Positions 4,094-21,083 are shown, counted from the first letter of the stretch. The stretch: DNA of 64,000 nt from an uncultured delta proteobacterium (GCA_963842085.1 CAWJET010000001.1:2560001-2624000), one strand, 5' to 3'. The notes: generated by a model from the sequence alone, not told the origin. Translations and numbers: made by a program.

Positions 4094-4324
4094 TCACTCT
4101 ACGATTTCAAGAGTAACCCTGCGGTTCTTCCGCGCTGCGACCGCGGTCAGAATCGTGCGAATCGATTTTGCGGTATGGCCCTGCTTGCCGATCACCCGTC
4201 CAAGGTCTTCCTTCGCAACCCGCAGCTCGAGCACCGAGGCGGTCTCGCCCTGCGTTTCCTTCACCTCCACCGCGTCAGGATTGTTTACCAATTGTTGTGC
4301 GATGAACTGAACGAGCTCCTTCAT
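4094..4324 (-). CDS. khpA: KH-domain RNA-binding protein KhpA (UPF0109)
   Basis: 76 aa, MKELVQFIAQQLVNNPDAVEV...DLGRVIGKQGHTAKSIRTIL, with the GxxG KH motif and a GGAG RBS. Confidence 0.9.
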   Translation of the reverse strand: MKELVQFIAQQLVNNPDAVEVKETQGETASVLELRVAKEDLGRVIGKQGHTAKSIRTILTAVAARKNRRVTLEIVE

Positions 4325-4628
4325 GGGGTAACTCCGTTGAAGAAGTCGAACGAAAGTTTTTACAGGCCGCCATTACCCAGCCTAGTCTTAAGTAGGTCTT
4401 ATAGATACGTGCCTATAGTTATTACAGCCCACCTTGAATTTAGGACACTGGATTCACCCTGCAGCTGCCGCACCGATGGCGCGATCGTGCAGGCGGCGCA
4501 TGACACGCTGGTCGCGTCCAATTCGCCCGAATTCGTTGCCGCGCGTTCCGCGCTTCGGGGAAGAAAGAAAAAGCCCCAGATTGCTACGGGGCTATGTGAC
4601 CGAATCGACGATCGGTTGAAATCGATTC

Positions 4629-5324: not shown

Positions 5325-5661
5325 TAAGGAAGCCGAATTTCGCGAGCAGATGAACCAGATCCGCCGCAATCAAACGGGAAACGACGAACTCTGGATCAAC
5401 GGCGAGAACCACAGCGGCCCCTTGTTGCCGGTTGCCGCCTCGATGTTGCAGGGGGCCTGTTCGATCGTTCGTGCGCTCGCGCTCGATGTGTTCGCTGCGT
5501 TGACAACCGCGATGCTGCGGCGCTGGGTTGTCGCGCGCCCGATTGTGGTAATCCACGCATGATTTCGGGACTGGCCTCTGCGGCGAGAGCCAGCCATGAT
5601 GTCGGCGAACGCGCCCGCGACGGGCGATGATGGAACGCAGCGCTCGGAATGGAGGCAATCA

Positions 5662-5904
5662 ATGAAAAGGTTCGCGACACTTTCAATTCTCGCTGTCGCC
5701 ACGGCGCTGACAATCTCGATTCTGACCGCCCGACCGGCGGGCTGCGCGGGGTTCTCCGATCCCGAACTCAAGGCCTTCGACCAGGCCACGATTGTTTATG
5801 TCGCGACCGTGCGCAAGGACGGCAATCAGCACGCGGGGATCGTCGTGGATATTCTCGTCTTCGGCGCGTCGCTATCAGCGTGCGCGCCCCTTACCGTCCA
5901 GTAG
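5662..5904 (+). pseudogene. Truncated secreted protein, pyridoxamine-5'-phosphate-oxidase-like N-terminus
   Basis: GGAGG RBS, signal peptide MKRFATLSILAVATAL..., then IVYVATVRKDGNQ (split-barrel FMN-binding start). Similarity ends abruptly near 5830. Confidence 0.45.
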
Positions 5905-6373
5905 GAAACCAGGCTGTCGCTGGCCAGCCCTCGCTAGTCGCGCAGTCGCGCATCGAACTCAGCGGAATTAGCTCTAACCGGAGTCTGTGCGACAGGATTT
6001 GGGAGCGGCAACAACGTCTGTCGTCGAGGGAGAACATCAAAGACGGTGATTGTCGGATTCGATTCGCGCAGCACCCCATAGTCCGCTGCGATCGTCGTTA
6101 ACGTCGCGCCGGTGCTCGTCAACACGTTCGCGGTGATCCTCTGAATCGCGTATGCAGCGGACACTTTTCGATGATTAGTGAAGCTTGAAATACCCGGACT
6201 TGCCTGCTCGAAGTCGTTCGCGACGCAGTACGCCTCTGCGTAAGGGCCGCCTAGGCATCACGATGACGTGGATTAGTTATCATCGCAGCCAGCGCCGAGC
6301 CTGAGGCGGACTCGCTGGCCTCGAGCCCGATGACAAGCCGGGCCAGCGCGATGTAGTGTTACGCTAGGCCGTA

Positions 6374-9343
6374 ATGAGTGGATATCCCGCCGCTGAGAAT
6401 CCTCCCGCCGCCGGTCGCTTGCAATACCGATTTACCTCTGCGCACCAGCGGCTTCGCGAAACCGGTGCGCTGGATCGAATCATTTGTATCGGCTTGTTAA
6501 TCGGCACGATGGCGCTGGTCGGATGGGTGCGGCTGTTGCCCCACGCTCTAGGCGGCGTCGAGAGACCGGCCGCGGTCCTTGCGCGCGAAATGATCGCCGC
6601 CGAAGCCTACGGGCAACTGCCGGCTGATTCGCCGCAGCGGCGCGCCCCGATCGATCAAACGGTGCGCGCGTGGATGAGGGATCATCCCGCCGAATTCCAG
6701 AAATTGGATCACGAGATCGTCGGCCTGCTCGCTTCGGAATTTCGCTATATGGGTGACGACGGCCGCAAACACGTCTTCCTGGGTGACTATGACAGCTACC
6801 ACTGGCTGCGAATGGCCCGCAATTATCTGCAAGCGGGAACGACCTGCGATCGCATCGTAGACGGCATCTGCCGCGACACCTACACCAACGCACCGGTAGG
6901 CCGGATCAACGTCTATAACCGCTCGCTGCATATCGCTGCGATTATCACACTCAACCGCCTAATCACTCTTTTCAGGCCCGGGTTTCCGATTCCCGCCGGC
7001 TCCTTCCTGGTGCAGGCGTTGATCGGGATGCTCGGGGTCATTCCCGCCTTCGCGATAGGGCGCCGGGTCGCGGGTAATCTCGGCGGTTTCTGTGCCTCGA
7101 TCGTGCTGGGACTCAACCCGCTCTTCCTGGGACGGAGTCTTGGAAGCGACGACGACGTCTGGAATGTCGTCCTCCCGCTCTTCACGGTCTGGGCGCTGAT
7201 CGAGGCGTCGGCCGCGCCGTCATATCGCCGGCAGATCGCTTACGCGACTCTCGGCGCGGTGTTCGTCGGCCTGCACGCCGCTTCATGGAGCGGATGGCCG
7301 TTCGCCTATGGTGTCCTGATGATCGCGCTGCTCGCGAATCTGCTCTTCGAGTCGATCAAGCTGGCGCTGCGCAGAGCACGATCGGAAATTTCATCCGGAG
7401 CCGGAGTCCGACGCGCGGCTCTGGTCGTCGCGGTCTTTTGCTTTTCGGCGTGGATTACGACCTCGCTAGCAGGCGCCTCGTACTTTGCGACCGCACGACG
7501 CATTGCACGACCGGTAGCCGCCGTACTGCGGATTCATCCGGGCGGAGCGGACGTGGCTGCGGGCTCGCGTCCGAGTCCGCCCGGCGAGAGCGTGTGGCCG
7601 CGTAGTTTTTCCTTCGTCGAGGAGCTCAAGAAGGGCGACGCGACCCAGTTCGCGCTCTGGATGGGCGGGGAATGGGTGTTGTTCGCGGGCTGCCTTGGCC
7701 TGCTCCTGTTGGCCCTCCCGCACCGACGATGGAGATGGTGGGACTTCGCCTTGCTGATCGGCGCTGCCGGTCTTTATCGGTATGGGCTGACCGCCTCGCT
7801 CACAGGCGATTGGCAACTTCCGGCGCTGATCGCTGCGCCCATCGCGGTGGCTGTTCTGATCGACCTGACGCCGAATGCCCGACCTCCGCAAGAGGATCGA
7901 AGCGCGGTTTTGATTGTAACAGTCTGGTTCTGCGCAGCGCTGTATCTGAGCTTCTCGGCCGTGCGTTTCATCACGCTCCTCGCCGTGCCCTTTGCGATCG
8001 CGTTCGGTGCGATTCCCGGCCGCGCGCATCTATGGATCAGCAGGCTCATCCGTGAACGCCAGCCGCGCTACCCGGGGCCGGTGAGCGCTGCGGTCTTCGT
8101 GCTGCTAGCCGCGTGGACAATTGTGCCGGCCAAAGCCGGCTACCTGGAGGCGCGCAACTATATGCCCGACATCAACCAGGCCTGGTGGACGACGCTGGAG
8201 GACTTGTGCGAGCAAAGCCCGCCCAACGCTATCATCAACGCGGATTGGATCTATGGATACTGGATCAAGTACGCGGCGGAGCGGCGCGTCGTGGCGGACG
8301 GGGGCTCGCTCTCGACGCACATTCCGTACTGGCTCTCGCGCGCGCTGCTGGCGCCGAATGACAATCAGGCGGTAGGCGTGTTGCGGATGCTCGATTGCGG
8401 ATCGGACGCGATGCCGCAGCCGGAGGGCCAACTGGGAGCCTACGGCAAATTGATTGCGCAGGGCCTCGACCCGATAGCGGCTCAATCGATGGTGCTGGAG
8501 ATCGCGGGTCTGGACTTCGCCGCCGCCAAGGCTCGCCTGGCGCGCAGCGGGTTGGGCGAGGCGGCACAGGCCAGCGTGCTGGCTTCCACCCATTGCGACG
8601 CGCCGCCCGCGTACCTGATTCTTTCCACCAAAATGCTGCGCTTGGGGTGGTCTCAGCTCGGTAACTGGGATTGGGACTTCCGCCGCGCCTATGCTTACGA
8701 GAACGAGCGATCGATACCGGCAGCCGCCGCGGTTGATGATCTTGCCGCTCGCTTCGGGATGCAGCCGGCGGACGCGCGCACGCTCTTTCAACAGGTGCAC
8801 GGCCCGCATTCGGACGAAGACGCACAACGATTCATCGCATCGGCGCAAGCCCTCCGTGCGGGATGGATGCCATGCGGCGGTCTCACCCGCGGCGAGCTGG
8901 TTTGCACCAGTAACCTGCCGCTATCGCAGCGCCCAACCATAACCGGCCTCGTCTATCGGCCCACCGACACTACGCTGAAAATTGGTTTTCTGTCCGACCA
9001 CGGCGAGGTTCAGCCGCGGGACGAGACGCCGGCGATCGTACTGATCGCGGGCGACAAGGAGATCGTTGAGCATACAGTGGATTCGCCGACCGACCCGGAC
9101 GTGGCGGTGATGGTCGACCTGGTGCATTCTAGGGCCCTAGTCGGCCCGTCGAATCTGATCCGCTCAACCTTCACGAGGCTGGTGCTGCTCGACGGCGACT
9201 ACAGCCCGCTCTTCACCAAAGTCTATAAAGCCACAGTGATCGGAGAGACTGTAACCGCGTGGAAGATCAACTGGCCGGACCTTGAAAGATCGAGCTCGGG
9301 CCCGAACCCGAAACAACCGTCCACGCCTTCACCCGGCGCGTAA
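6374..9343 (+). CDS. STT3/AglB/PglB-family oligosaccharyltransferase (GT66), divergent
   Basis: 989 aa with a multi-TM N-half. Motifs GDYDSYHWLR, RSLGSDDDVW (DxD), FVEEL (TIxE-like), AVRF, ADWIYGYWIK..RRVVADGGS (at the WWDYG position) and RMLDCG. Confidence 0.88.
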   Translation: MSGYPAAENPPAAGRLQYRFTSAHQRLRETGALDRIICIGLLIGTMALVGWVRLLPHALGGVERPAAVLAREMIAAEAYGQLPADSPQRRAPIDQTVRAWMRDHPAEFQKLDHEIVGLLASEFRYMGDDGRKHVFLGDYDSYHWLRMARNYLQAGTTCDRIVDGICRDTYTNAPVGRINVYNRSLHIAAIITLNRLITLFRPGFPIPAGSFLVQALIGMLGVIPAFAIGRRVAGNLGGFCASIVLGLNPLFLGRSLGSDDDVWNVVLPLFTVWALIEASAAPSYRRQIAYATLGAVFVGLHAASWSGWPFAYGVLMIALLANLLFESIKLALRRARSEISSGAGVRRAALVVAVFCFSAWITTSLAGASYFATARRIARPVAAVLRIHPGGADVAAGSRPSPPGESVWPRSFSFVEELKKGDATQFALWMGGEWVLFAGCLGLLLLALPHRRWRWWDFALLIGAAGLYRYGLTASLTGDWQLPALIAAPIAVAVLIDLTPNARPPQEDRSAVLIVTVWFCAALYLSFSAVRFITLLAVPFAIAFGAIPGRAHLWISRLIRERQPRYPGPVSAAVFVLLAAWTIVPAKAGYLEARNYMPDINQAWWTTLEDLCEQSPPNAIINADWIYGYWIKYAAERRVVADGGSLSTHIPYWLSRALLAPNDNQAVGVLRMLDCGSDAMPQPEGQLGAYGKLIAQGLDPIAAQSMVLEIAGLDFAAAKARLARSGLGEAAQASVLASTHCDAPPAYLILSTKMLRLGWSQLGNWDWDFRRAYAYENERSIPAAAAVDDLAARFGMQPADARTLFQQVHGPHSDEDAQRFIASAQALRAGWMPCGGLTRGELVCTSNLPLSQRPTITGLVYRPTDTTLKIGFLSDHGEVQPRDETPAIVLIAGDKEIVEHTVDSPTDPDVAVMVDLVHSRALVGPSNLIRSTFTRLVLLDGDYSPLFTKVYKATVIGETVTAWKINWPDLERSSSGPNPKQPSTPSPGA

Positions 9344-9380
9344 GCCGCGCACGCGAAATAGCCGCGCGCCGGCATTGCGG

Positions 9381-10676
9381 TCAAGCGCCGTTCAGCAATC
9401 CCTCACAGCAGGCGATCACGGCCACAGCCGCACCCGGGGCGGCGAAGTTTCGCATGCGATTCGATGCGGCCATCCAGACCTCGCGGTCACGCAACACCGA
9501 CGTGATGTGCGCAGCGAGCTTTTCCGGCTCCCAGGCCTCTTCAGTCACCCAACGGGTTCCGGTCCGGGCGGAAAATGCGCGCGCGGTGTAAAGCTGGTGA
9601 TTGTGAGCCACGGAAGCCATCGGAACTATAAGTGCTGGAAGCCGAAGGACCGCAAGTTCGGCAAGCGTGTTCGCTCCCGCGCACGAGATCGCGAAGTCCG
9701 CCCATCGGTAGGCTTCAGCCATGTCCTCGATATAGCGCGCGGTGCGCGCCTTCACGCCGCAGGCAGCGTACTGGGCGACCACCCCCTCTGGCCCGTCAAG
9801 GCCGGCCCGATACCCGGTCTGATGCAGCACCTCCAGCGCCGGGACGCTTTGCTGAAGGAGTTCGAGCAGCCGAGGCACCCGCTCGTTGAGAAAAGCCGAG
9901 CCCAGCGAGCCGCCGGTGACCAGAATCCGCGCGGGACGACCGCCGCCCGGAGCGATGCGCACCTCGAGCGCCAGCTTTATGATCTCGCCGCGAATGGGCG
10001 TGCCGGTCACCACTGTGCGCTCAGGCGGAAACCACTTGCCTGCCTCCTCGAACGTGACGCAGATCCGGTGGACCAGCCGGCCGAGGACCCGGTTGGTGAG
10101 CCCCGGAACTGGATTGGACTCGTGAACCACCGTGCGCAGGCCCAGCGAGCGCGCTGCCAGCAGGGTACCCGCGCAGGCGTAACCGCCGAAGCCGATCGCA
10201 AGCTCGATCCGTTCGGCCCTCAAGATCGCCCGCGCGCGAACGAAGCCGGAGCCGAGATTCGCCAGAGCGCGCGCCTTTCCCGAGATTCGCTCACGCAGCA
10301 TCGGAGAGGCCGCGATCGGTGCGAACCGGTATCCGCTCCGGCTGGCGGCCTGCGACTCGAGACTGCATTCGCGTCCGAAGATCAGGATCTGCGCGCGATC
10401 GCTCGCCGCGGCGTAGTTCTCGGCGAGCGCAAGTCCCGGGTAGGTGTGGCCGGCAGTGCCACCGACCGTGATTGCGATACGCCGAGGGCGGGCGACTCCG
10501 GACGAAGCGTGGTTGCGGTCGGCTCCGTTCGACGCGTGGGACACGCCGTAGCGGTGCGGCGAGTTCTCTGCGAACGACACCGCGCCGGACTGCCGCGCAG
10601 TCAGGGCACCACGCTGATCCTGAACGGAAACGTTACTCACGAAAGAAGACCGCGCCACCACGCGATCCGCGCGCAC
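9381..10676 (-). CDS. MurG-like GT28 UDP-GlcNAc:lipid-PP-sugar transferase paralog (true start possibly GTG at 10544)
   Basis: GGTAGH, GFGGY, HESNPVPGLTNR, TGTPIR, GGSLGS, HQTG, AYRWADFAISCAGANTLAEL. It lies outside any dcw cluster. Confidence 0.88.
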   Translation of the reverse strand: MRADRVVARSSFVSNVSVQDQRGALTARQSGAVSFAENSPHRYGVSHASNGADRNHASSGVARPRRIAITVGGTAGHTYPGLALAENYAAASDRAQILIFGRECSLESQAASRSGYRFAPIAASPMLRERISGKARALANLGSGFVRARAILRAERIELAIGFGGYACAGTLLAARSLGLRTVVHESNPVPGLTNRVLGRLVHRICVTFEEAGKWFPPERTVVTGTPIRGEIIKLALEVRIAPGGGRPARILVTGGSLGSAFLNERVPRLLELLQQSVPALEVLHQTGYRAGLDGPEGVVAQYAACGVKARTARYIEDMAEAYRWADFAISCAGANTLAELAVLRLPALIVPMASVAHNHQLYTARAFSARTGTRWVTEEAWEPEKLAAHITSVLRDREVWMAASNRMRNFAAPGAAVAVIACCEGLLNGA

Positions 10677-10822
10677 TCATCGCCGCACCCCATCTCCAAA
10701 ATCTCTCCCCCTCGCCGCCCACAATCCAAATCGAATCAAGGTTTTCTTTAGCAATAGAAACATATTGGAGCAATGAAACGGATTAGTGTTTTTCCCCAGA
10801 AGTTTCGATAGTCGTTAGGTTT

Positions 10823-11749
10823 CTAGCGCAATCGGTGCGGGCTGTTCCCGGGACCATACAGATAGCCCATCAGCTCGCCGGCGGCATGGAAGTGCAGAAT
10901 CACGACGATTAGCGGAAAGCTCTTTAAGGCCTGCCACCGATAAGCCGGCTTGCGGACGACCATCCGTGCAGCGATCCGCAGGCTGTCTTTAGCGACTCGC
11001 AGAGGCATCAAGAGGGCGCGCAAAACGTGGTATATGCACTGTGCGCGACCTAACTTGGCTTGGGCAAAGCCGGCACTGGTGCGACCGTCGTGATAGTGGA
11101 TTAGACAATTACCTAGCGCACCAAGCGGCAGCACGTGGACGACCACGAGGCGATCGTCGCTAATCAGGATTCGGCCAGAACCACGCAGGTCCCTCGTGTA
11201 ATCGCTCTCTACGACACCGTGGGGAGGCAGATCCTCGGGCAACGCCCAGCGCTTATACGAAATGTTAGCCTGACCGGCGATGGTGGGGCGCTCTCCGTTT
11301 GGTATAGGGGGCAGAAAGGCACCGCCGGAGATGAAGAAACTCGCTCGATCCCACAGACTGTCGACGGCGCCATTGTCAACCACGCCACCTATCACGGCCG
11401 CCTGAGGATTCTCCCGATGCGCGCGCAGCACCTGCTCGCACCAATCTGGCGCCACCCGGCAATGGTCTTCAGTGACGGCAACAACCTCGCCGCGGGCTTC
11501 GGCGAGACCGATAGCGCGTAATTGAAACACGGTGTCGCCGGGCCGGCGCAGCCATCGAACGCCTGCGTAACCGTGATTCTCGCACAAGCCCTGGCCGTGT
11601 CCATCGACCACGACTAGCTCCGCTCCCAGAGCCCGCGTCTGGGCATATACCGAATCCAAGACACCGCGCATCTCCAGCCATGGCTGGCTGGTGGCTATGA
11701 CTACAGACAGAGGAGGAACACACTCGGCGAGCGACCTATCATCCTGCAA
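10823..11749 (-). CDS. Family 2 glycosyltransferase
   Basis: LSVVIAT...ELVVVDG...LRAIGLAEARGEVVAVTEDHCRVAPDW (GT-A fold, EDH variant of DxD), with a hydrophobic C-terminus. Confidence 0.8.
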   Translation of the reverse strand: MQDDRSLAECVPPLSVVIATSQPWLEMRGVLDSVYAQTRALGAELVVVDGHGQGLCENHGYAGVRWLRRPGDTVFQLRAIGLAEARGEVVAVTEDHCRVAPDWCEQVLRAHRENPQAAVIGGVVDNGAVDSLWDRASFFISGGAFLPPIPNGERPTIAGQANISYKRWALPEDLPPHGVVESDYTRDLRGSGRILISDDRLVVVHVLPLGALGNCLIHYHDGRTSAGFAQAKLGRAQCIYHVLRALLMPLRVAKDSLRIAARMVVRKPAYRWQALKSFPLIVVILHFHAAGELMGYLYGPGNSPHRLR

Positions 11750-11929
11750 AGACCGCTCCTCTCACGGTTCGATTATTTGTCGGGGCTTCCGTTTGAATCT
11801 CCGATTCCAACTGGCCGTATAGACCGAACGGCCTTCCTCTGCAAGGCGTGCAGCCGGGTTTTAGTCCACTCTGTTTCCAGCGGCACCGCATAGGGCCGGT
11901 TTCGCGGCAGGCGTGCAAACAACGCGCGG

Positions 11930-11958
11930 TTGACACAACCGCCTGCGGACTCTATCAA
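11930..11958 (+). promoter_or_regulatory. Candidate sigma70 promoter for the ALG1-ALG2-ABC operon
   Basis: TTGACA (11930-11935), 17 nt spacer, TATCAA (11953-11958), ending ~60 nt upstream of ATG 12018. Confidence 0.55.
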
Positions 11959-12017
11959 CGTACAGTCAGCGAAACAGGCGTAGTTTTTTTCCCGCCTGAA
12001 GTCGCCGCCCCATCCGT

Positions 12018-13256
12018 ATGCGAGTAGTGATTGTCGTCCTCGGGGATTTCGGCCAAAGTCCCCGCATGCAGTATCACGCTCTGGCGTTAGCCGATTCGGG
12101 CAGAGATGTAGAGGTTATTGCATATACCGGCTCTGCGCCGTTTCGGGCGGTCAGTGAAAATCCGCGGATCACGATTCATCTGACGTACGCTCCGATCGCT
12201 GCCACGCGCCATTTGCCGGGGTTACTGTTCGTGGCCTGGCAATTCATGCGGCTCTGCGGTCAGGGTCTGGGCCTGCTGTGGAACCTTCTGCTGACCGTCG
12301 GCAAGCCTGACGTAGTACTGGTGCAGAATCCCCCAGCCGTCCCAACCTTGCTGATCGCGCTGGTCGCCGCGCGCCTTCGATCGGCGCGGCTCGTAATCGA
12401 CTGGCATAACTTCAGCCATGCGATGCTCGCGCTCAGGCTGGGATCGGATCACTATGCGGTGCGAATGTTGCGATGGCACGAGCGCGCGGTCGGGCGCCGC
12501 GCCGACGCGCATCTGTGCGTCTCGCGCGCGATGCAGTCCGAGCTTCGCGCGCACTGGCAGATTCCCGGCGCTGTCGTCCTGTACGATCGTCCCGCTGAAA
12601 TGTTCACGCCGACGCCGCCGGAGGCGCAGCCCGCGGTGCTCCGCCGCGTCCTGGCGGGCGTCGCTTCCGCCCAGGACGACGGCCGGCGGCCCGCGATTGT
12701 CGTATGCCCTACGAGCTGGACTTCGGATGAAGACATTTCGATTCTGATTCGGGCCGCGGCGCGCTGCGATGAAATGGTCCGAACCGGCAAGAGCTTCGCT
12801 GAACTGCTGATTCTTATCACCGGCCGTGGCGCGCTGCGCGATCAACACGAGGAGGAGATCCGGAAGTTGACGCTGCGAAGAATCCATCTGCACACGCTGT
12901 GGCTTGCGGCCGAAGATTACGCGCTATTGCTGGGCTGCGCCGACCTCGGCGTCTCGTGTCACAGGTCGGCCTCGGGAATCGACCTGCCGATGAAGATCGC
13001 GGATCTGTTCGGCGCGGGAGTGCCGGTCTGCGCGCTGGACTACGGTCCCGTTCTCGCCGAACAGGTGCGCCACGGCGCCAATGGCCTCCTGTTCGCCGAC
13101 GCCGAACAGCTAGCCACGCAGCTCTACGAATTGTTCGAGGGCTTTCCCGTCCATACGCCGCTGCTGGATCGCCTGCGTGACCAGGTCCGCGGCCAGCCCC
13201 GGATTTCCTGGCGCGACGGATGGAATACCGAGGCAGCTCATGTCTTTGCGGATTGA
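12018..13256 (+). CDS. ALG1-like chitobiosyl-PP-lipid beta-1,4-mannosyltransferase (GT33)
   Basis: VVLGDFGQSPRMQYHALALA, QNPPAVPT, IDWHNF, TSWTSDED, ITGRG, WLAAEDYALLLGCADLGV, SASGIDLPMKIADLFG. These correspond to eukaryotic ALG1 signature blocks. Confidence 0.9.
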   Translation: MRVVIVVLGDFGQSPRMQYHALALADSGRDVEVIAYTGSAPFRAVSENPRITIHLTYAPIAATRHLPGLLFVAWQFMRLCGQGLGLLWNLLLTVGKPDVVLVQNPPAVPTLLIALVAARLRSARLVIDWHNFSHAMLALRLGSDHYAVRMLRWHERAVGRRADAHLCVSRAMQSELRAHWQIPGAVVLYDRPAEMFTPTPPEAQPAVLRRVLAGVASAQDDGRRPAIVVCPTSWTSDEDISILIRAAARCDEMVRTGKSFAELLILITGRGALRDQHEEEIRKLTLRRIHLHTLWLAAEDYALLLGCADLGVSCHRSASGIDLPMKIADLFGAGVPVCALDYGPVLAEQVRHGANGLLFADAEQLATQLYELFEGFPVHTPLLDRLRDQVRGQPRISWRDGWNTEAAHVFAD

Positions 13257-13274
13257 CCGTCGCGACGGACCGTC

Positions 13275-14489
13275 ATGAGACAATCGCTGCGGATCGGTTT
13301 CGTCCATCCCCAGCTAGGCGTCGGAGGTGCCGAACGCCTGGTGCTCGACGCCGCAAGCTGTCTTCAGCAGGCTGGCCATCGCGTTACGATTTTCACCTCG
13401 CGTCACAATCGCGACCATAGTCTTGACGACGCGCGTCACGGCGCGGTCGAGGTCCGCACTTACGGGGACTTCCTGCCGCTTGACATCGCCGACCGCATGC
13501 TGGCGCCATTTAATGTTGGCCGGACCTGCTACGCCGCTTTCCGCCTGGCGATGAGCCGCGAGCACTTCGACGTGATCTTCACCGACCTGGTGTCACAATC
13601 GATTCCGATACTGCGGCTGATGACGCGGGCCAAAATCATCTTCTACTGTCATTTCCCCGACCGGTTGCTCGCTCCGCAACGCGGCGGTCTCTACCGCTGG
13701 TACCGCATCCCCATCGACTGGTCGGAACGAGTCGCCATCGGCATGGCGCATCTAGTGATCGCCAACAGCAGATTCACGGCCTCGATAATCGGTCGCACTT
13801 TCCCGCGGCTCGGCCCGCCACAGCTGCTCTATCCCGGGGTTGACGTCGCGAGCTTCGCGAGCAACGGCCGAATCGCTCACGACGACTCGATCATGCTGCT
13901 TGCGATCAACCGCTACGATCGCCGCAAGAACACCGGCCTCGCGATCGAGGCGCTGGCCGGGCTCGAGGCGCGGCTGCCGACCGAAATCTTCCGCCGCGTG
14001 CAACTGGTGATTGCCGGCGGCTTCGACGACCGCAGCCGCCAGAACCACGAAGTCCTGCGCGAGCTGCAAGTGCTGGCAAACCGGCCTGCTCTGACCGGCA
14101 AAGTGGTCTTTCTGCGCTCGCCCGACGACCGGCAGATTCAAGAGCTTCTTTCGCGCTGTCGATGCGTGGTTTATACCTCGGAGTATGAGCATTTCGGCTA
14201 CGTACCGTTGGAGGCTATGGCCGCCGCGCGGCCGGTGATATCGGTGAACACCGGCGGTCCGGCGGAGACGATTGTGGATGGCACCACCGGCCTGCTCTGC
14301 TCGGCCAGGCCGGCGGCTTTTGCCGACGCTCTCGCCGGCTTGGTGGCGGACCCCGACGGTGGCGATCGACTGGGCCGGGCCGGCCGGGCGCACGTGGCCG
14401 CAAAATTCTCGAAAGCGGTCTTCGGCGCGCAACTCGAACAGATCGTCGAGGAAGCGGTTGGCAACTCCCGTAATTCAGGACTTGAATAG
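13275..14489 (+). CDS. ALG2-like alpha-1,3/1,6-mannosyltransferase (GT4)
   Basis: FVHPQLGVGGAERLVLDAA, FYCHFPDRLL, YRIPIDWSE, INRYDRRKN, IAGGFDDR, EHFGYVPLEAM, VNTGGPAET. These correspond to eukaryotic ALG2 signature blocks. Confidence 0.9.
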   Translation: MRQSLRIGFVHPQLGVGGAERLVLDAASCLQQAGHRVTIFTSRHNRDHSLDDARHGAVEVRTYGDFLPLDIADRMLAPFNVGRTCYAAFRLAMSREHFDVIFTDLVSQSIPILRLMTRAKIIFYCHFPDRLLAPQRGGLYRWYRIPIDWSERVAIGMAHLVIANSRFTASIIGRTFPRLGPPQLLYPGVDVASFASNGRIAHDDSIMLLAINRYDRRKNTGLAIEALAGLEARLPTEIFRRVQLVIAGGFDDRSRQNHEVLRELQVLANRPALTGKVVFLRSPDDRQIQELLSRCRCVVYTSEYEHFGYVPLEAMAAARPVISVNTGGPAETIVDGTTGLLCSARPAAFADALAGLVADPDGGDRLGRAGRAHVAAKFSKAVFGAQLEQIVEEAVGNSRNSGLE

Positions 14490-16335
14490 CCGCGCATCAC
14501 ACGGTCGGAGCTCCCGCTTCCCAGCCATCCGAGTTTTGGCCAGCTGCTTCGCGATGCTTCCCGGCGCAATCCGATGGCGCTGGGCGATACTCGCGCCGAT
14601 TGCATTCCTGCGCGGCACGCTCGAGGCCATAGCGGCCGGGGCGGTGTTCGCGCTGATCAAGATCATCAGCGATCCGCCCGCGATCGCTCACCTGCCAGTC
14701 GTCTCAAGGGTCGCATCGATGCTGCCCTGGCGCGGCGCCCCGGCCCAGATCGTCGCGCTGACCGGACTGGTCGCGCTTTTTTACCTGTTCAAGAACCTGT
14801 TTGCCCTCGGCATGGAATACTTCACCCACAAGGTCGTGGGTGAATCGGTGTTGGCGCTCAAAAGTACGATGATGAGGGGCTATCTCGCGATGCCCTACCC
14901 GTTTTATCTGCGCCGCAACTCCGCGGATCTGATCTGGAACGTCGACGCCGCGGTGAACCGGGTCTGCGAAGAAGGAATGTTGCCGGCGGTCGCCGTGGTG
15001 TCGGAAGTTCTGGCCGCTGCGAGCATCGCCGCGGTGCTGGTGTACACCGCGCCAAAGATTACCCTGATCGCCGGATGCCTGCTGGGCGGCGGACTCGCCT
15101 TGCTGCTGCGACTCACGCGCGCGATGGCGCATCGCTATGGATCCGAGAGGGACCGGCTGTCACGCGGCATTCTGCGCGATCTCCAGCAAGCCTTCGGCGG
15201 AGTCAAGGAGATCAAGGTGCTCGGCCGCGAACAGTTTTTTGTCGGGGCGCTCGAGCAGAAACTGCGCGGCATCCTCAAACTCGGATACCTCGCCAAAACC
15301 CTCGAGACCAGCGCGCCGTTGTTCACTGAGACCCTGTTCGTGGGCGGGGCGCTGGTCGTGATCGCGCTGCTGAGCGCAAGGGGCGCGGTCCGCAGCGAAG
15401 GGCTGCCGCTGCTGGCGCTGTTCTCCTATGCCGCGTTCCGGATCGTTCCGTCCGTCAACCGGATCGGGTGGCGGATCAATCAGATCCGCGGCGTGGCGGT
15501 ATCGGCCAGCAATCTCTACGACGACTATCTGCTCATAGCCGGTGTCGAGCGCGGCAACGCCGACGTTGATGACGGTCATGCAGTGATGCTCCACAGCGCA
15601 ATCGAATTCGAGCGCGTTTCGTTTACGTACCCGGAGGCCGGGCAATCGGCGCTGCATGAGATCTCGCTTACGATTCGCCGCGGCGAATCAATCGGCGTCG
15701 TGGGACCTACTGGCGCGGGCAAGAGCACGTTCGCCGACCTCCTGGTGGGATTGCTCACTCCCTCCTCGGGCCTCGTTCTGATCGACGGCCGAGACCTGTC
15801 TGATCGGCGGTTGGCCTGGAAGCATCGGATCGGCTACGTGCCGCAATCAATCTTTCTCCTCGACGACAGCCTGACCCGCAACATTGCGTTTGGCTTTGCC
15901 GACGCCGAGATCAAGCTTGACCGCGTGCGCGCCGTGGTCCGAATGGTGCAACTCGATCAGTTGGTCGCCACGCTGCCGGCGGGCCTCGACACCGTGGTCG
16001 GTGAGCGCGGCGTTCGCTTCTCCGGCGGCGAACGGCAACGCGTCGGGATCGCCCGCGCGCTCTATCACGATCCCGACCTGCTGGTATTCGATGAGGCCAC
16101 CTCCGCCCTCGACCAGGCCACCGAGGCCGACGTGACGAACGCGATTGAGACGCTGCAAGGCCGCAAGACAATGCTGGTCATCGCCCATCGCCTGGCTACG
16201 GTAAAGCATTGCGATCGGCTGGTCTTCATCGCCGACGGACGGATCCGCGCGTGCGGCAGCTACGATGAATTGATGCGCGACGTCGACGAATTCCGCCGAA
16301 TGGCGGCGGCAGGCGAAACGCGCTCGGCAGGCTGA
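14482..16335 (+). CDS. ABC exporter (fused TMD+NBD), PglK/WlaB-like lipid-linked-oligosaccharide flippase; start uncertain (14482 or 14554)
   Basis: TM half with YLAMPYPFYLRRNSADL, Walker A GPTGAGKST, FSGGERQRVGIARALYHDP, VFDEATSALD and IAHRL. It lies inside a GT operon. Confidence 0.85.
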   Translation: MNSRASHGRSSRFPAIRVLASCFAMLPGAIRWRWAILAPIAFLRGTLEAIAAGAVFALIKIISDPPAIAHLPVVSRVASMLPWRGAPAQIVALTGLVALFYLFKNLFALGMEYFTHKVVGESVLALKSTMMRGYLAMPYPFYLRRNSADLIWNVDAAVNRVCEEGMLPAVAVVSEVLAAASIAAVLVYTAPKITLIAGCLLGGGLALLLRLTRAMAHRYGSERDRLSRGILRDLQQAFGGVKEIKVLGREQFFVGALEQKLRGILKLGYLAKTLETSAPLFTETLFVGGALVVIALLSARGAVRSEGLPLLALFSYAAFRIVPSVNRIGWRINQIRGVAVSASNLYDDYLLIAGVERGNADVDDGHAVMLHSAIEFERVSFTYPEAGQSALHEISLTIRRGESIGVVGPTGAGKSTFADLLVGLLTPSSGLVLIDGRDLSDRRLAWKHRIGYVPQSIFLLDDSLTRNIAFGFADAEIKLDRVRAVVRMVQLDQLVATLPAGLDTVVGERGVRFSGGERQRVGIARALYHDPDLLVFDEATSALDQATEADVTNAIETLQGRKTMLVIAHRLATVKHCDRLVFIADGRIRACGSYDELMRDVDEFRRMAAAGETRSAG

Positions 16336-16347
16336 GCAAGCGAAGCG

Positions 16348-17192
16348 ATGGATTTTGGATCTTCGTTAAGTTGGCGCCGTTACTCGCGCGGACTCGGTTC
16401 GAACGCGAAGACCTGGCCCGCTGGCCCGACGCATTCGCTGAGCGCCAGCGTTGTCCCAGCCGAGGTTGGCTCCCACGTCGATACATACGCCGCCACTGAG
16501 ATCCAACAAGCGGAACAGCGCGAGCAACTCGGGCTCCCAGGTTCGGATCAGGAATAGGGTGCTACCGATCGCGACGTCGCGCAAGTCAATCCGGAGGCGA
16601 AAATGATCGGCGGCGATAACCGCCCGCGGGTAAATACGCCGGCGGAAAGGGGTGATCCAATGTCGCCGAGCGATCGGCGCTGGGAGAGCGAAAAGAGACC
16701 ACCTGGCTGTGGCTTAATTCACACAACTGGGGAGACAACCGGATCGTGTCGGAACGCAAAGCTGGCGAACAATATGAGTCAGTAGCAGTCAAAGTGGGCG
16801 ACGAGATCCTGTCGGCGCTGCCGGCCGGCGCGATCAAGCTGGTGAAGGTCGACGCGCAGGGCTACGACCTGTTCGTGGTGAAAGGTTTACGCGACTCGCT
16901 GATGCGCAGTCCCGACGCGGTCCTGGCCGTGGAAGTCGCGCCAGGGCACTTACGTGAAGCGGGCACCTGCCCGGGCGCGTTCGTCGCATACCTGGTCGAG
17001 CAGGGTTTCCGCGGCTGGGAGCTACACCCTCATCGCGCATTTCCGGTCCTTGCACCCCAAGACTACGAACTCAGCGACGACGGCGGGGAAACGAACCTGG
17101 TGTTGTCTCGCCGGCCAGAAGCGCTCGCCCGCGCGATTGGCAGGATGTTTCCCGGCTTGACCGGATCTTCAGCTCCGCGCATCGAGCGCTAG
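16348..17192 (+). pseudogene. FkbM-family methyltransferase disrupted by an internal inversion/deletion
   Basis: The C-half on + reads LWLNSHNWGDNRIV..IKLVKVDAQGYDLFVVKG. The N-half on - (~16380-16705) reads WEPE..CIDVGANLGW then, after a 1-nt shift, TTLALSECVGPAGQVFAFEP. Confidence 0.8.
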
Positions 17193-18118
17193 CCCCGCTC
17201 TGCGGCCTTCGGCGCAATGCGGTTTGGCTCCGGCCTTGACAGTCGCTGCCTGGCCAGGCCGAGGTACAGTTTCGCCAACAGCCGCATTCGCTGCGCGAAG
17301 GGAACAATCGGGACATCGCCCAGGATCTCATCCCGCAAGTCCCACCAATCCGCCCAAAGATCATGGAATATGGGATGGGCCGTCGGGAGCAAACGGTAAG
17401 CGTCCTCGGGCCGCCAAAACCAGGGCTTACCCAGGTGGCTGAAGTGAACCAGCATCGCCATCCGCCGAGCGCGCTCGGCATCTCCGAAGTAAAACGGACC
17501 GGTGGCGGAGCACCACTCCGAATTCAAACAGCCATACTCGTCGGCGAGGAAATGAATCTCATCGTCGAACTCCAGATTGATGATATTCATGTCATACAGG
17601 CGCTTCTCAAAGGCGGAAGCGAAGTGCCGTTGAACCCGATCCCAATTGCCCATTGATGGGGTTACGACCAGCAACAGGCTGGTCGCCTTAAACTGTCGCG
17701 TCCAGTAGGCGCGCGGAGCCGCGATGGTCTGCGCAAAAGGCAAGGTGAAAAGATGGTCGAGATTCTGGAGCGGAAGTGAGTCCGAGTCGATGAAGACCAC
17801 CCGCTCGTACTCCACGAGCTGAAAAATCCGCAGCTTGGTAAGACAATCGCGGTAGTACTTGCCGCGGGTGAACCGCAGCGGTTCCACCTCTCTTAGAATG
17901 AAGTTCGCGTGGCGGGCCCTGGTTACCATGGCCGGCGACACGCCGTGGTAGATGAAGACGAACCCGATATCGCGGCCGGCGCCAGTTCTGCGCAGCGCCG
18001 TCGCGGCAATGATCGCGCCTGCGGCGTACGCGTCGTCGGTCGCATAAAAGACGTATGCAAACCGGTTCACGGCCGCTCGTGATCCGCCTAATTCCTCACT
18101 CGTGCTCAAGGTCTGCAC
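17189..18118 (-). CDS. Family 8 glycosyltransferase (glycogenin-like, resembling fungal GNT1)
   Basis: FAYVFYATDDAY, TKLRIFQLVEYERVVFIDSD, NLDHLF, AAPRAYW, YDMNIIN, VHFSHLGKPW. Confidence 0.85.
   Translation of the reverse strand: MQTLSTSEELGGSRAAVNRFAYVFYATDDAYAAGAIIAATALRRTGAGRDIGFVFIYHGVSPAMVTRARHANFILREVEPLRFTRGKYYRDCLTKLRIFQLVEYERVVFIDSDSLPLQNLDHLFTLPFAQTIAAPRAYWTRQFKATSLLLVVTPSMGNWDRVQRHFASAFEKRLYDMNIINLEFDDEIHFLADEYGCLNSEWCSATGPFYFGDAERARRMAMLVHFSHLGKPWFWRPEDAYRLLPTAHPIFHDLWADWWDLRDEILGDVPIVPFAQRMRLLAKLYLGLARQRLSRPEPNRIAPKAAERG

Positions 18119-21083: not shown

Follow-up and report, generated by a model that had tools for sequence, protein, structure and literature searches.

In eukaryotes the lipid-linked oligosaccharide (LLO) for N-glycosylation is built by an initiator of the PF00953 family, a GT28 enzyme adding the second GlcNAc, and the mannosyltransferases ALG1 and ALG2, the latter bearing two signature motifs; the product is then flipped and transferred by an oligosaccharyltransferase (OST) of the STT3 family. 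The same families, for the same order of chemistry, are found in the system described here, which is centred on a gene cluster at 6.4-21.2 kb of a 64,000-nucleotide stretch, hereafter the window, from an uncultured delta proteobacterium (GCA_963842085.1, CAWJET010000001.1:2560001-2624000). Several features set it apart from the eukaryotic pathway: the genes are all clustered together; a single chain of the MurG type, much nearer to MurG, serves as the GT28 enzyme, whereas ALG13/14 is split; the candidate flippase is an ABC exporter rather than RFT1; the OST consists of one subunit and is longer by about 250 residues; no ALG11 was detected by an ALG11_N search of the genome; and the luminal ALG3/9/12/6/8/10 steps are not evident. 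The carrier is presumably undecaprenol.

The pgl system of Campylobacter (PglC/A/J/H/I, PglK and PglB) has in common with the cluster the one-locus bacterial design, the cytoplasmic assembly of the LLO, a putative ABC flippase of the same type (the PglK model gives 243 bits here) and a single-subunit OST, PglB being the closest match by fold. Where Campylobacter uses bacillosamine/GalNAc enzymes, however, the cluster has ALG1- and ALG2-type mannosyltransferases and a MurG paralog, and the PglJ model reaches 30 bits, where its cut-off is 500. The Campylobacter initiator is of the PglC type, whereas the one considered here belongs to the WecA/ALG7 family, and PglB (713 aa) is shorter than the OST of the cluster (about 990 aa). 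An archaeal parallel is provided by the chitobiose core of Sulfolobus (Agl24 and AglB), in which a GT28-superfamily enzyme makes the chitobiose-PP-lipid and a STT3-family OST follows; likeness to archaeal N-glycosylation also extends to the AglB_L1 and AglB_core domains in the OST of Polyangia loci related to the cluster. The GT28 enzyme of the window appears to be MurG-like rather than Agl24-like.

The origin of the single mannosyltransferases has been addressed in the literature. ALG1 is unplaced, and its origin called unknown, in the available text of Lombard 2016 (PMC4973528); gene-by-gene studies of 2024-25 then placed this origin in bacteria, and reliable ALG1 homologs were reported to be bacterial only, as far as the accessible parts of the two preprints go (Kifer et al., bioRxiv 10.1101/2024.10.30.621208; Xu et al. 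2025, bioRxiv 10.1101/2025.10.15.682550). The archaeal ALG2 homologs tested are described as inactive in the portion available of the latter, which deals with the same families, the same taxa and ALG2 motifs of identical type as considered here. In that portion the enzymes are treated singly, for their bacterial ancestry, while the present analysis adds the context of OST, MurG paralog, initiator and exporter: the terms 'gene cluster', 'operon' and 'STT3' have 0 occurrences each in the text of Xu et al., as do operon, gene cluster, synteny and STT3 in the available text of Kifer et al. The original prediction for the window, made from the sequence alone, stated that no characterised bacterial system of this composition was known to its author. 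This must be amended for ALG1 and ALG2 of such bacteria, characterised in 2025 both in vitro and in yeast, and stands for the cluster with its OST and exporter, of which no description was found in the full-text literature searched, a body from which subscription journals are largely missing.

According to open reading frames (ORFs), Pfam and NCBIfam, the cluster contains nine enzyme genes that are intact and a tenth gene that is broken; the STT3-type OST, MurG paralog, GT2, GT8 and ABC exporter predicted originally are all in place. We put at about 65% the probability that the cluster encodes a native bacterial system of N-linked protein glycosylation, with a LLO that starts like the eukaryotic one. 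The host, a soil bacterium, is a relative of Candidatus Binatus, the best protein matches naming Candidatus Binatus or the Binatia; its genome of 4.93 Mb is assembled in two contigs and rated 100% complete on marker genes.

For comparison, a search for ALG1 homologs was carried out in contigs taken from one genome per species; it returned 155 relatives, of which the best 80 loci were kept. The gene-family counts over these loci were made by allotting tblastn hits to the best-scoring family, with two extra OST types and a WecA-type gene, derived from ORF clustering and Pfam, included among the queries. Since contig ends cut many loci, the counts are lower bounds, and the 37 loci flanked by 10 kb on either side were tallied separately. 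In the following, L numbers denote ALG1-anchored loci, G numbers genomes and X numbers soil metagenome contigs.

Core enzymes of the cluster

The ALG1-like gene (12018-13256, plus strand) encodes a GT-B transferase of 412 aa, whose best matches are from Candidatus Binatus, at 91-92% identity. Of 8000 candidates scored, 2816 were homologs at E<=0.001, among which the sole function-specific name was 'beta-1,4-mannosyltransferase' (JGI). In the ESM Atlas the nearest named clusters are eukaryotic, 'Chitobiosyldiphosphodolichol beta-mannosyltransferase', at 0.98-1.00, a result to be taken as a lead and not as an alignment. The ALG1 likeness initially noticed is supported by homolog names and Atlas neighbours; neither the protein nor its family profile matched any solved structure. 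The predicted function is that of a GDP-Man:GlcNAc2-PP-polyprenol beta-1,4-mannosyltransferase.

The next gene (13275-14489, plus strand) encodes a GT4 enzyme of 404 aa, with Glycos_transf_1 (E 9.4e-30) and Glyco_transf_4 domains. In the available text of Xu et al. 2025, the signature of ALG2 consists of G-I-G-G-A-E-R and E-H-F-G-I-V-P-L-E, both of them required according to mutagenesis. The window protein carries GVGGAER at residues 15-21, forming the G-rich loop, and EHFGYVPLE, an EX7E motif in which the Val is kept, in agreement with the ALG2 blocks predicted. Of the 31 loci for which ALG2 was called, 23 contain both motifs by regular expression search, while the G-loop was found in one of the 49 loci lacking such a call. 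The protein is a putative alpha-1,3/alpha-1,6-mannosyltransferase making Man3GlcNAc2-PP-lipid.

Experimental data on homologs of both enzymes are given in the accessible part of the same preprint (Xu et al. 2025). ALG1 homologs from Gammaproteobacteria, Polyangia and Binatia rescue a yeast alg1 deletion and yield Man1GlcNAc2-PP-phytanyl, which is extended by human ALG2; two bacterial ALG2 homologs complement yeast, with formation of Man2- and Man3-GlcNAc2.

The MurG paralog (9381-10676, minus strand; start uncertain, with several GTG codons at 10676-10544) contains both GT28 Pfam domains and scores 230 bits with the MurG model TIGR01133, under the cut-off of 250.25. The canonical murG, at 277 bits, is located on the other contig, 3 kb from mraY. 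The paralog is 30% identical to this canonical MurG of its own host and 40-45% identical to paralogs of other phyla. The same pairing was observed in each of five other cluster-bearing genomes tested, with a canonical MurG (261-356 bits) and a paralog (216-250 bits). In a quick maximum likelihood tree of GT28 sequences (IQ-TREE), comprising 29 ALG1-adjacent paralogs and 6 canonical MurG, 27 of the 29 paralogs form one cross-phylum clade (SH-aLRT 99), with all six canonical sequences outside; the other two, from Polyangia, are placed outside the main clade on a long branch. Judged from these comparisons, the protein is a GT28 member distinct from the housekeeping MurG, the lipid II synthase. 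Because ALG1 needs a chitobiose acceptor, and because the adjacency of the paralog to ALG1 is constant, it would act as UDP-GlcNAc:GlcNAc-PP-polyprenol beta-1,4-GlcNAc transferase, forming the chitobiose core.

The OST, a protein of 989 aa referred to as the 'OSTa' type, is encoded at 6374-9343 on the plus strand (Pfam STT3 E 2.8e-26) by the only STT3 gene of the genome. In 14 control genomes, the STT3 Pfam family was present in 4 of 4 archaea and in 0 of 10 bacteria. A search of solved structures with the single sequence gave no match, and only the family profile reached solved OSTs: its comparison with PDB produced 20 distinct matches at E<=1, 19 of which are OST chains, with best scores of 1.1e-7 for STT3, 1.8e-7 for PglB and 4e-6 for AglB. 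In the profile alignments the OST motifs fall on YDNEA of STT3, and R531 falls on LRF of PglB; the motifs also align with YDTDM/TIMEV of PglB, there in a weakly scoring stretch. When an AlphaFold (AF2) model (pLDDT 79.6, pTM 0.79) was compared by Foldseek, the top 19 matches were all PglB, STT3(A/B) or AglB, the best being 5ogl_A (E 9e-15, TM 0.64 on target). By its modelled GT-C fold, with a multi-span membrane part and a periplasmic C-terminal domain, the protein belongs to the STT3/PglB/AglB group (GT66). The family comprises 1251 representatives (50% clustering) at E<=1e-30; the best 150 are all at E<=1.2e-168, and most span nearly the whole profile.

When 18 homologs from such clusters, with identities of 25-83% to the window protein, were aligned, D140 (GDYDSYHW), D259 (SDDDVW), E417 (SFVEEL), R531 and W625, the central W of the WWDYG block, proved invariant in all 18 sequences. 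We take D140, D259 and E417 to be the catalytic acidic residues of external loops 1, 2 and 5, corresponding to the DxD, the second D-containing motif and the TIxE/SVSE-type Glu. The WWD (WWDYG) motif binds the +2 Ser/Thr of the sequon. At its position 12 of the 18 proteins have WWD, four xWD and one LWE, while the window protein reads DWI (residues 624-626, in the context DWIYGYW), encoded by GAT TGG ATC at 8243-8251. The OSTs of the closest relatives read NWD, QWD and WWD, the first W being already replaced by N or Q in the nearest ones. The DWI allele was recovered without any difference in soil metagenome contigs from two studies, covering 8000-8500 (X1, X2) and 8170-8377 (X5); co-occurring strains in the metagenomes have QWD, and more distant strains WWD. 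Since it is identical in independent contigs of two studies, DWI is a genuine allele and not an assembly error. With DWI at this position despite the kept catalytic residues, the acceptor rule or the activity of the enzyme may differ from that of its relatives. Transfer of the glycan to the Asn of N-X-S/T by the window OST is the function predicted from its family.

Distribution of the gene set

Over the 80 loci, a STT3-type OST of any type was found in 39 (17 of the 37 fully flanked loci), the MurG paralog in 44 (17 of 37), the ABC exporter in 47 (27 of 37), a family of GT4 enzymes here termed GT4x in 35 (20 of 37), ALG2 in 31 (15 of 37), and a PF00953 (WecA/ALG7-family) initiator within the cluster in 24 (14 of 37). 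The MurG paralog accompanies 36 of the 39 OST loci. The window type of OST accounts for 23 of these loci, a 755-aa type for 14 and a 878-aa type for 2. The synteny search called for in the original prediction thus finds OST, MurG paralog, ALG1, ALG2 and ABC exporter co-conserved, in Binatia, Rokubacteria/Methylomirabilota, Acidobacteriota, Verrucomicrobiia, Polyangia, Phycisphaeraceae and proteobacterial metagenome-assembled genomes (MAGs).

Gene order varies between groups. Binatia have OST, MurG paralog, ALG1, ALG2, ABC and GT4x, in some cases with WecA ahead of the OST; Rokubacteria have the whole set in about 10 kb, as ABC, GT4x, WecA, MurG paralog, ALG1, OST and ALG2. The layout is MurG paralog, ALG1, ABC, OST in Bryobacterales and MurG paralog, WecA, ALG1, OST in Polyangia, while one Gammaproteobacteria MAG shows ALG1, ALG2, GT4x, ABC, MurG paralog and OST.

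Association at the genome level was evaluated in a sample of the window's class, composed of 201 genomes, 164 of them of high quality, which are related and hence not independent. ALG1 was detected in 27 of the 201 (26 of the 164) and STT3, above cut-off, in 43. STT3 is present in 25 of the 27 ALG1 genomes, the exceptions being G043 and G306, and in 18 of the 174 others; without the unpublished genome G383, ALG1 and STT3 occur together in 24 of 26. A phylum-wide sample gave the system in 3 of 201 genomes, all in the window's class, and none among the listed genomes outside the class.

These figures bear on the possibility that the lipid-linked glycan is built as proposed, and that its main fate is not protein N-glycosylation: the STT3-family enzyme could mostly hydrolyse it to free periplasmic oligosaccharide or pass it to a non-protein acceptor, or it could be left bound to the lipid or used for a surface polymer. 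Campylobacter PglB does release free oligosaccharide, the sequon-binding WWD is DWI in the window strain, with the first W already lost in the nearest relatives, and 12 of the 80 ALG1 loci have no OST nearby. On the other hand, OST and ALG1 go together in nearly all ALG1 genomes of the class sample, and all characterised STT3/PglB/AglB enzymes known to us N-glycosylate proteins. WWD or xWD is kept, with all catalytic residues, in 16 of the 18 aligned sequences, and the retention of WWD at the family level argues for peptide binding. We consider a non-protein fate unlikely.

Far less probable, and already disfavoured, is an ordinary cluster of the exopolysaccharide (EPS) or lipopolysaccharide (LPS) type, in which the likeness to ALG1 and ALG2 would be that of generic GT-B enzymes and the STT3-like gene an unrelated neighbour. 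It would fit the weak, EPS-type NCBIfam matches of the GT4 and GT2 enzymes and the generic character of GT2, GT8 and GT4a, one of the two further GT4 enzymes of the cluster; Wzx, Wzy or a ligase, at which no search was aimed, may also be present. It is opposed by the eukaryotic ALG1 clusters and the JGI beta-1,4-mannosyltransferase names reached by the ALG1-like protein, by the exact ALG2 motifs, by the conserved occurrence of OSTs of three lineages beside ALG1, in several phyla, by the lack of the STT3 family in the ten control bacteria, and by the ALG activities of homologs reported in the available text of Xu et al. 2025.

Other features were observed at the related loci. The 755-aa OST (STT3 and AglB_core-like; e.g. 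L083:2575-4842) is found in Rokubacteria, Bryobacterales and Vicinamibacteraceae, and the 878-aa OST, of archaeal style with AglB_L1 and AglB_core (L050:11276-13912), in Polyangia. In five Rokubacteria/Methylomirabilia loci (L025, L028, L031 at 14953-20322, L032 and L057) ALG2 is followed by a gene for a giant protein of about 1800 aa, in which InlB B-repeat and Big_2 domains occur and which could be a surface glycoprotein serving as substrate. A radical-SAM/SPASM-cupin fusion is contained within three loci (L027:7063-8931, L041:6775-8643, L024:127-2115), in the first two between MurG paralog and ALG1. In L011, a Binataceae MAG, the MurG paralog and ALG2 are each in two pieces (6645-8000 and 11264-12479), owing to frameshifts or assembly errors. 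Lone ALG1 genes (L038, L045, L046, L053, L058, L061 and others) lie between genes for CO-dehydrogenase-type molybdoenzymes and an aldehyde dehydrogenase gene; at such loci of Vicinamibacterales no other tracked cluster gene was found within 10 kb.

Exporter, accessory genes and surroundings

The ABC gene (about 14554-16335, plus strand; ABC_tran E 1.4e-29, ABC_membrane E 1.2e-6) encodes a half-transporter with fused transmembrane and ATPase parts, of the MsbA/PglK type. Its NCBIfam scores are 266 bits for MsbA (cut-off 602) and 243 for PglK (cut-off 1000). The frame is open from 14272 and ATG 14554 is the first ATG past the ALG2 stop, the true start being uncertain. The protein is the candidate flippase for the LLO.

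The absence from the window of WecA/ALG7-type and ManC-type genes, correctly noted from the outset, is complemented by genes of both kinds elsewhere in the genome. The initiator candidates are encoded by two WecA-like genes (617 aa and 638 aa), one of which shares about 40% identity with the initiators that relatives carry inside the cluster; two ManC-like genes would provide for the GDP-mannose prerequisite.

GT4a (18106-19323, minus strand, 405 aa; Glycos_transf_1 E 1.8e-15) belongs to the conserved GT4x family of ALG1 clusters, whose members are usually located beside the ABC gene. The neighbouring gene (19320-21200, minus strand; start at GTG 21200 or ATG 21140) encodes a fusion of a class-I methyltransferase domain (Methyltransf_11 E 2.6e-6) with a second GT4, GT4b (Glycos_transf_1 E 3.7e-12), the GT domain of which is 61% identical to GT4a; other Binatia have this same fusion, at 591-602 aa (P0143-P0152). 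Both GT4 enzymes had been described as ALG11-like, an identity that was tried and rejected. Pfam ALG11_N (PF15924) matched neither of them at E<=0.01, nor anything in the whole genome at E<=1; the 120 best GT4a homologs have generic names only; and the Atlas neighbours of GT4a are generic bacterial and archaeal GT4 clusters. The best solved relative of the GT4x profile is WbaZ-1 (E 4.9e-8), and hhalign gives a probability of 1% for its comparison with the ALG1 profile. Also in this genome (G000 C2:1339030-1340208 and C2:1329293-1329913), a further GT4x paralog, the third, shares about 35% identity with GT4a and is separated by about 10 kb from the second of the WecA-like genes; this proximity suggests that the genome has another glycan locus.

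The GT2 gene (10823-11749, minus strand, 308 aa; Glycos_transf_2 E 1.5e-10) had, by tblastn over the 80 loci, matches of 84-85% identity in L008-L010 and one partial match, at 25%, in L027, and by this distribution appears to be an accessory gene limited to the closest Binatus relatives. The gene for the GT8 retaining enzyme (17189-18118, minus strand, 309 aa; Glyco_transf_8 E 1.8e-8) had a single partial match among the 80 loci, in L011, and is likewise accessory.

Of the methyltransferases predicted in the cluster, one domain is intact, in the fusion with GT4b, while the reading frames of the other gene, of the FkbM type, show it to be broken into two halves. The N-terminal half is a remnant at 16366-16713 on the minus strand, identified from stop-to-stop frames; it is inverted and frameshifted, with the SAM-binding stretch DVGANLG continuing in another frame. 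The C-terminal half (16656-17192, plus strand, with an ORF from GTG 16746) matches TIGR01444 (fkbM_fam, E 0.0022) over profile positions 87-138 of 143. L009 has an intact gene of 300 aa at 5522-6424, after the ABC gene (Methyltransf_21 E 2.2e-12). The window copy is probably a pseudogene. In L008 an intact IS110 transposase (16289-17758; DEDD_Tnp_IS110 and Transposase_20) is inserted between the ABC gene and GT4a, in the same variable stretch that holds the broken FkbM gene and GT8 in the window.

To the right of the cluster (21108-21479 and 23107-23962) lie a C-terminal fragment of an IS110 transposase, further transposase/HTH remnants and, at 23887-23962, a tRNA-Thr gene. The tRNA-Thr and the genes to its right are syntenic in the congener G379, where the left flank is 2.4 Mb off; in congeners G295 and G359 the cluster sits at other places. 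The cluster may be an island at a tRNA; no empty site is definable, because the flanks are not syntenic in congeners. The left flank is gene-poor, and short stretches of it (4097-4342 and 5517-5837) recur in congeners at 79-90% identity. The first is present in one copy per genome in five congeners, the second in up to two copies at unrelated places; they look like dispersed repeats or small mobile elements.

Such surroundings raise the question of whether the window holds a decaying, horizontally acquired island, in which protein glycosylation has been lost while the system works in relatives. The transposase remnants and tRNA-Thr, the non-syntenic flanks, the displaced copies in G295 and G359, the DWI motif, the inverted and frameshifted FkbM gene and the restriction of the cluster to 3 genomes out of 10 in the genus can all be read in this sense. 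Yet each of the nine enzyme genes, core or accessory, has an open frame of full length; the proteins are 71-93% identical to those of relatives, without truncation; and the catalytic residues of the OST are intact. In addition, the DWI allele is unchanged in the metagenomes of two studies and therefore persists in nature. Loss of function by decay is judged improbable.

Proposed pathway and its meaning

In the proposed pathway, a WecA/ALG7-family enzyme, encoded elsewhere in the host genome and within the cluster in many relatives, would load HexNAc-1-P, presumably GlcNAc-1-P, onto polyprenyl phosphate. The MurG paralog would add a second GlcNAc to give chitobiose-PP-lipid, to which the ALG1 homolog would attach a beta-1,4-mannose, and the ALG2 homolog would carry the product to Man3GlcNAc2-PP-lipid; these two mannosylation steps have been demonstrated by others for homologs. 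The GT4x enzymes, in the window lineage perhaps together with GT2, GT8 and the methyltransferase domain, may extend or decorate the glycan. The MsbA/PglK-type exporter would then flip it to the periplasmic face, and the STT3-family OST would transfer it en bloc to asparagine of exported proteins. A Man5GlcNAc2 product, as originally envisaged, is not supported, because GT4a and GT4b are not ALG11 by the tests run. The evidence supports a chitobiose-trimannosyl-type lipid-linked glycan with exporter and OST, and Man3GlcNAc2 with further additions is the most that can be argued.

A number of observations weigh against native N-glycosylation by this route. What the sequences themselves show is which families are present, that these are co-conserved and that the catalytic motifs are kept; neither a glycan nor a lipid-linked intermediate nor a glycoprotein has so far been seen in any of these organisms. 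A look for RNA sequencing runs turned up none, which bears on expression in neither direction. The DWI motif departs from the sequon-binding consensus; the broken FkbM gene and the insertion-sequence remnants adjoining the cluster may mean decay; and the distribution is patchy, the 3 of 10 genomes of the genus including that of the window. ALG1 is alone within reach in 12 of the 80 loci, mostly in Vicinamibacterales, and in the ABC-GT4x-WecA-ALG1 loci of Acidobacteriota, again mostly Vicinamibacterales, the 10 kb around contain neither OST nor MurG paralog nor ALG2; the link of ALG1 to an OST is thus not universal. The profile of the MurG paralog is very MurG-like, with solved MurG 3s2u at E 6.4e-91, and the substrate of the enzyme is deduced from context, not from its sequence; a special kinship with ALG13/14 was discarded, as no ALG13 chain appeared at E<=0.01 in the same profile search. 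Finally, according to the portion of the preprint available, two of five ALG1 homologs, from Deltaproteobacteria and Methylomirabilota, were inactive, as was a Methylomirabilota ALG2, and a Deltaproteobacteria ALG2 was weakly active, without complementation (Xu et al. 2025); the Binatia ALG1 reported there may or may not be a close relative of the window protein.

If the proposed reading is true, the conserved cluster would show ALG1 and ALG2 at work in a complete bacterial N-glycosylation pathway, joined there with an initiator, a candidate for the formation of chitobiose, a flippase and an OST. A broader proposal, which we hold to be tentative and rather doubtful, is that N-glycoproteins with a eukaryotic Man3GlcNAc2 core are native to Binatia, Rokubacteria and other uncultured soil bacteria by way of one operon, in which WecA-type initiator, MurG paralog, ALG1, ALG2, ABC flippase and STT3-family OST would act with a polyprenyl-PP carrier, and that this operon lineage was the source of ALG1 and ALG2 in the eukaryotic stem. 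In that case the cytosolic half of the endoplasmic reticulum pathway would have been a working bacterial module before eukaryogenesis. The evolutionary argument on the origin of eukaryotic N-glycosylation would thereby become open to tests at the bench.

We know of no engineered E. coli system having bacterial trimannosyl-chitobiose enzymes on a bacterial carrier together with an OST evolved with that glycan; the enzymes and OST of the cluster would supply those parts for glycoengineering. The OST family to which the window protein belongs is large and uncharacterised and, should the reading hold, bacterial N-glycosylation would reach past the Campylobacter-type pgl systems to abundant soil phyla.

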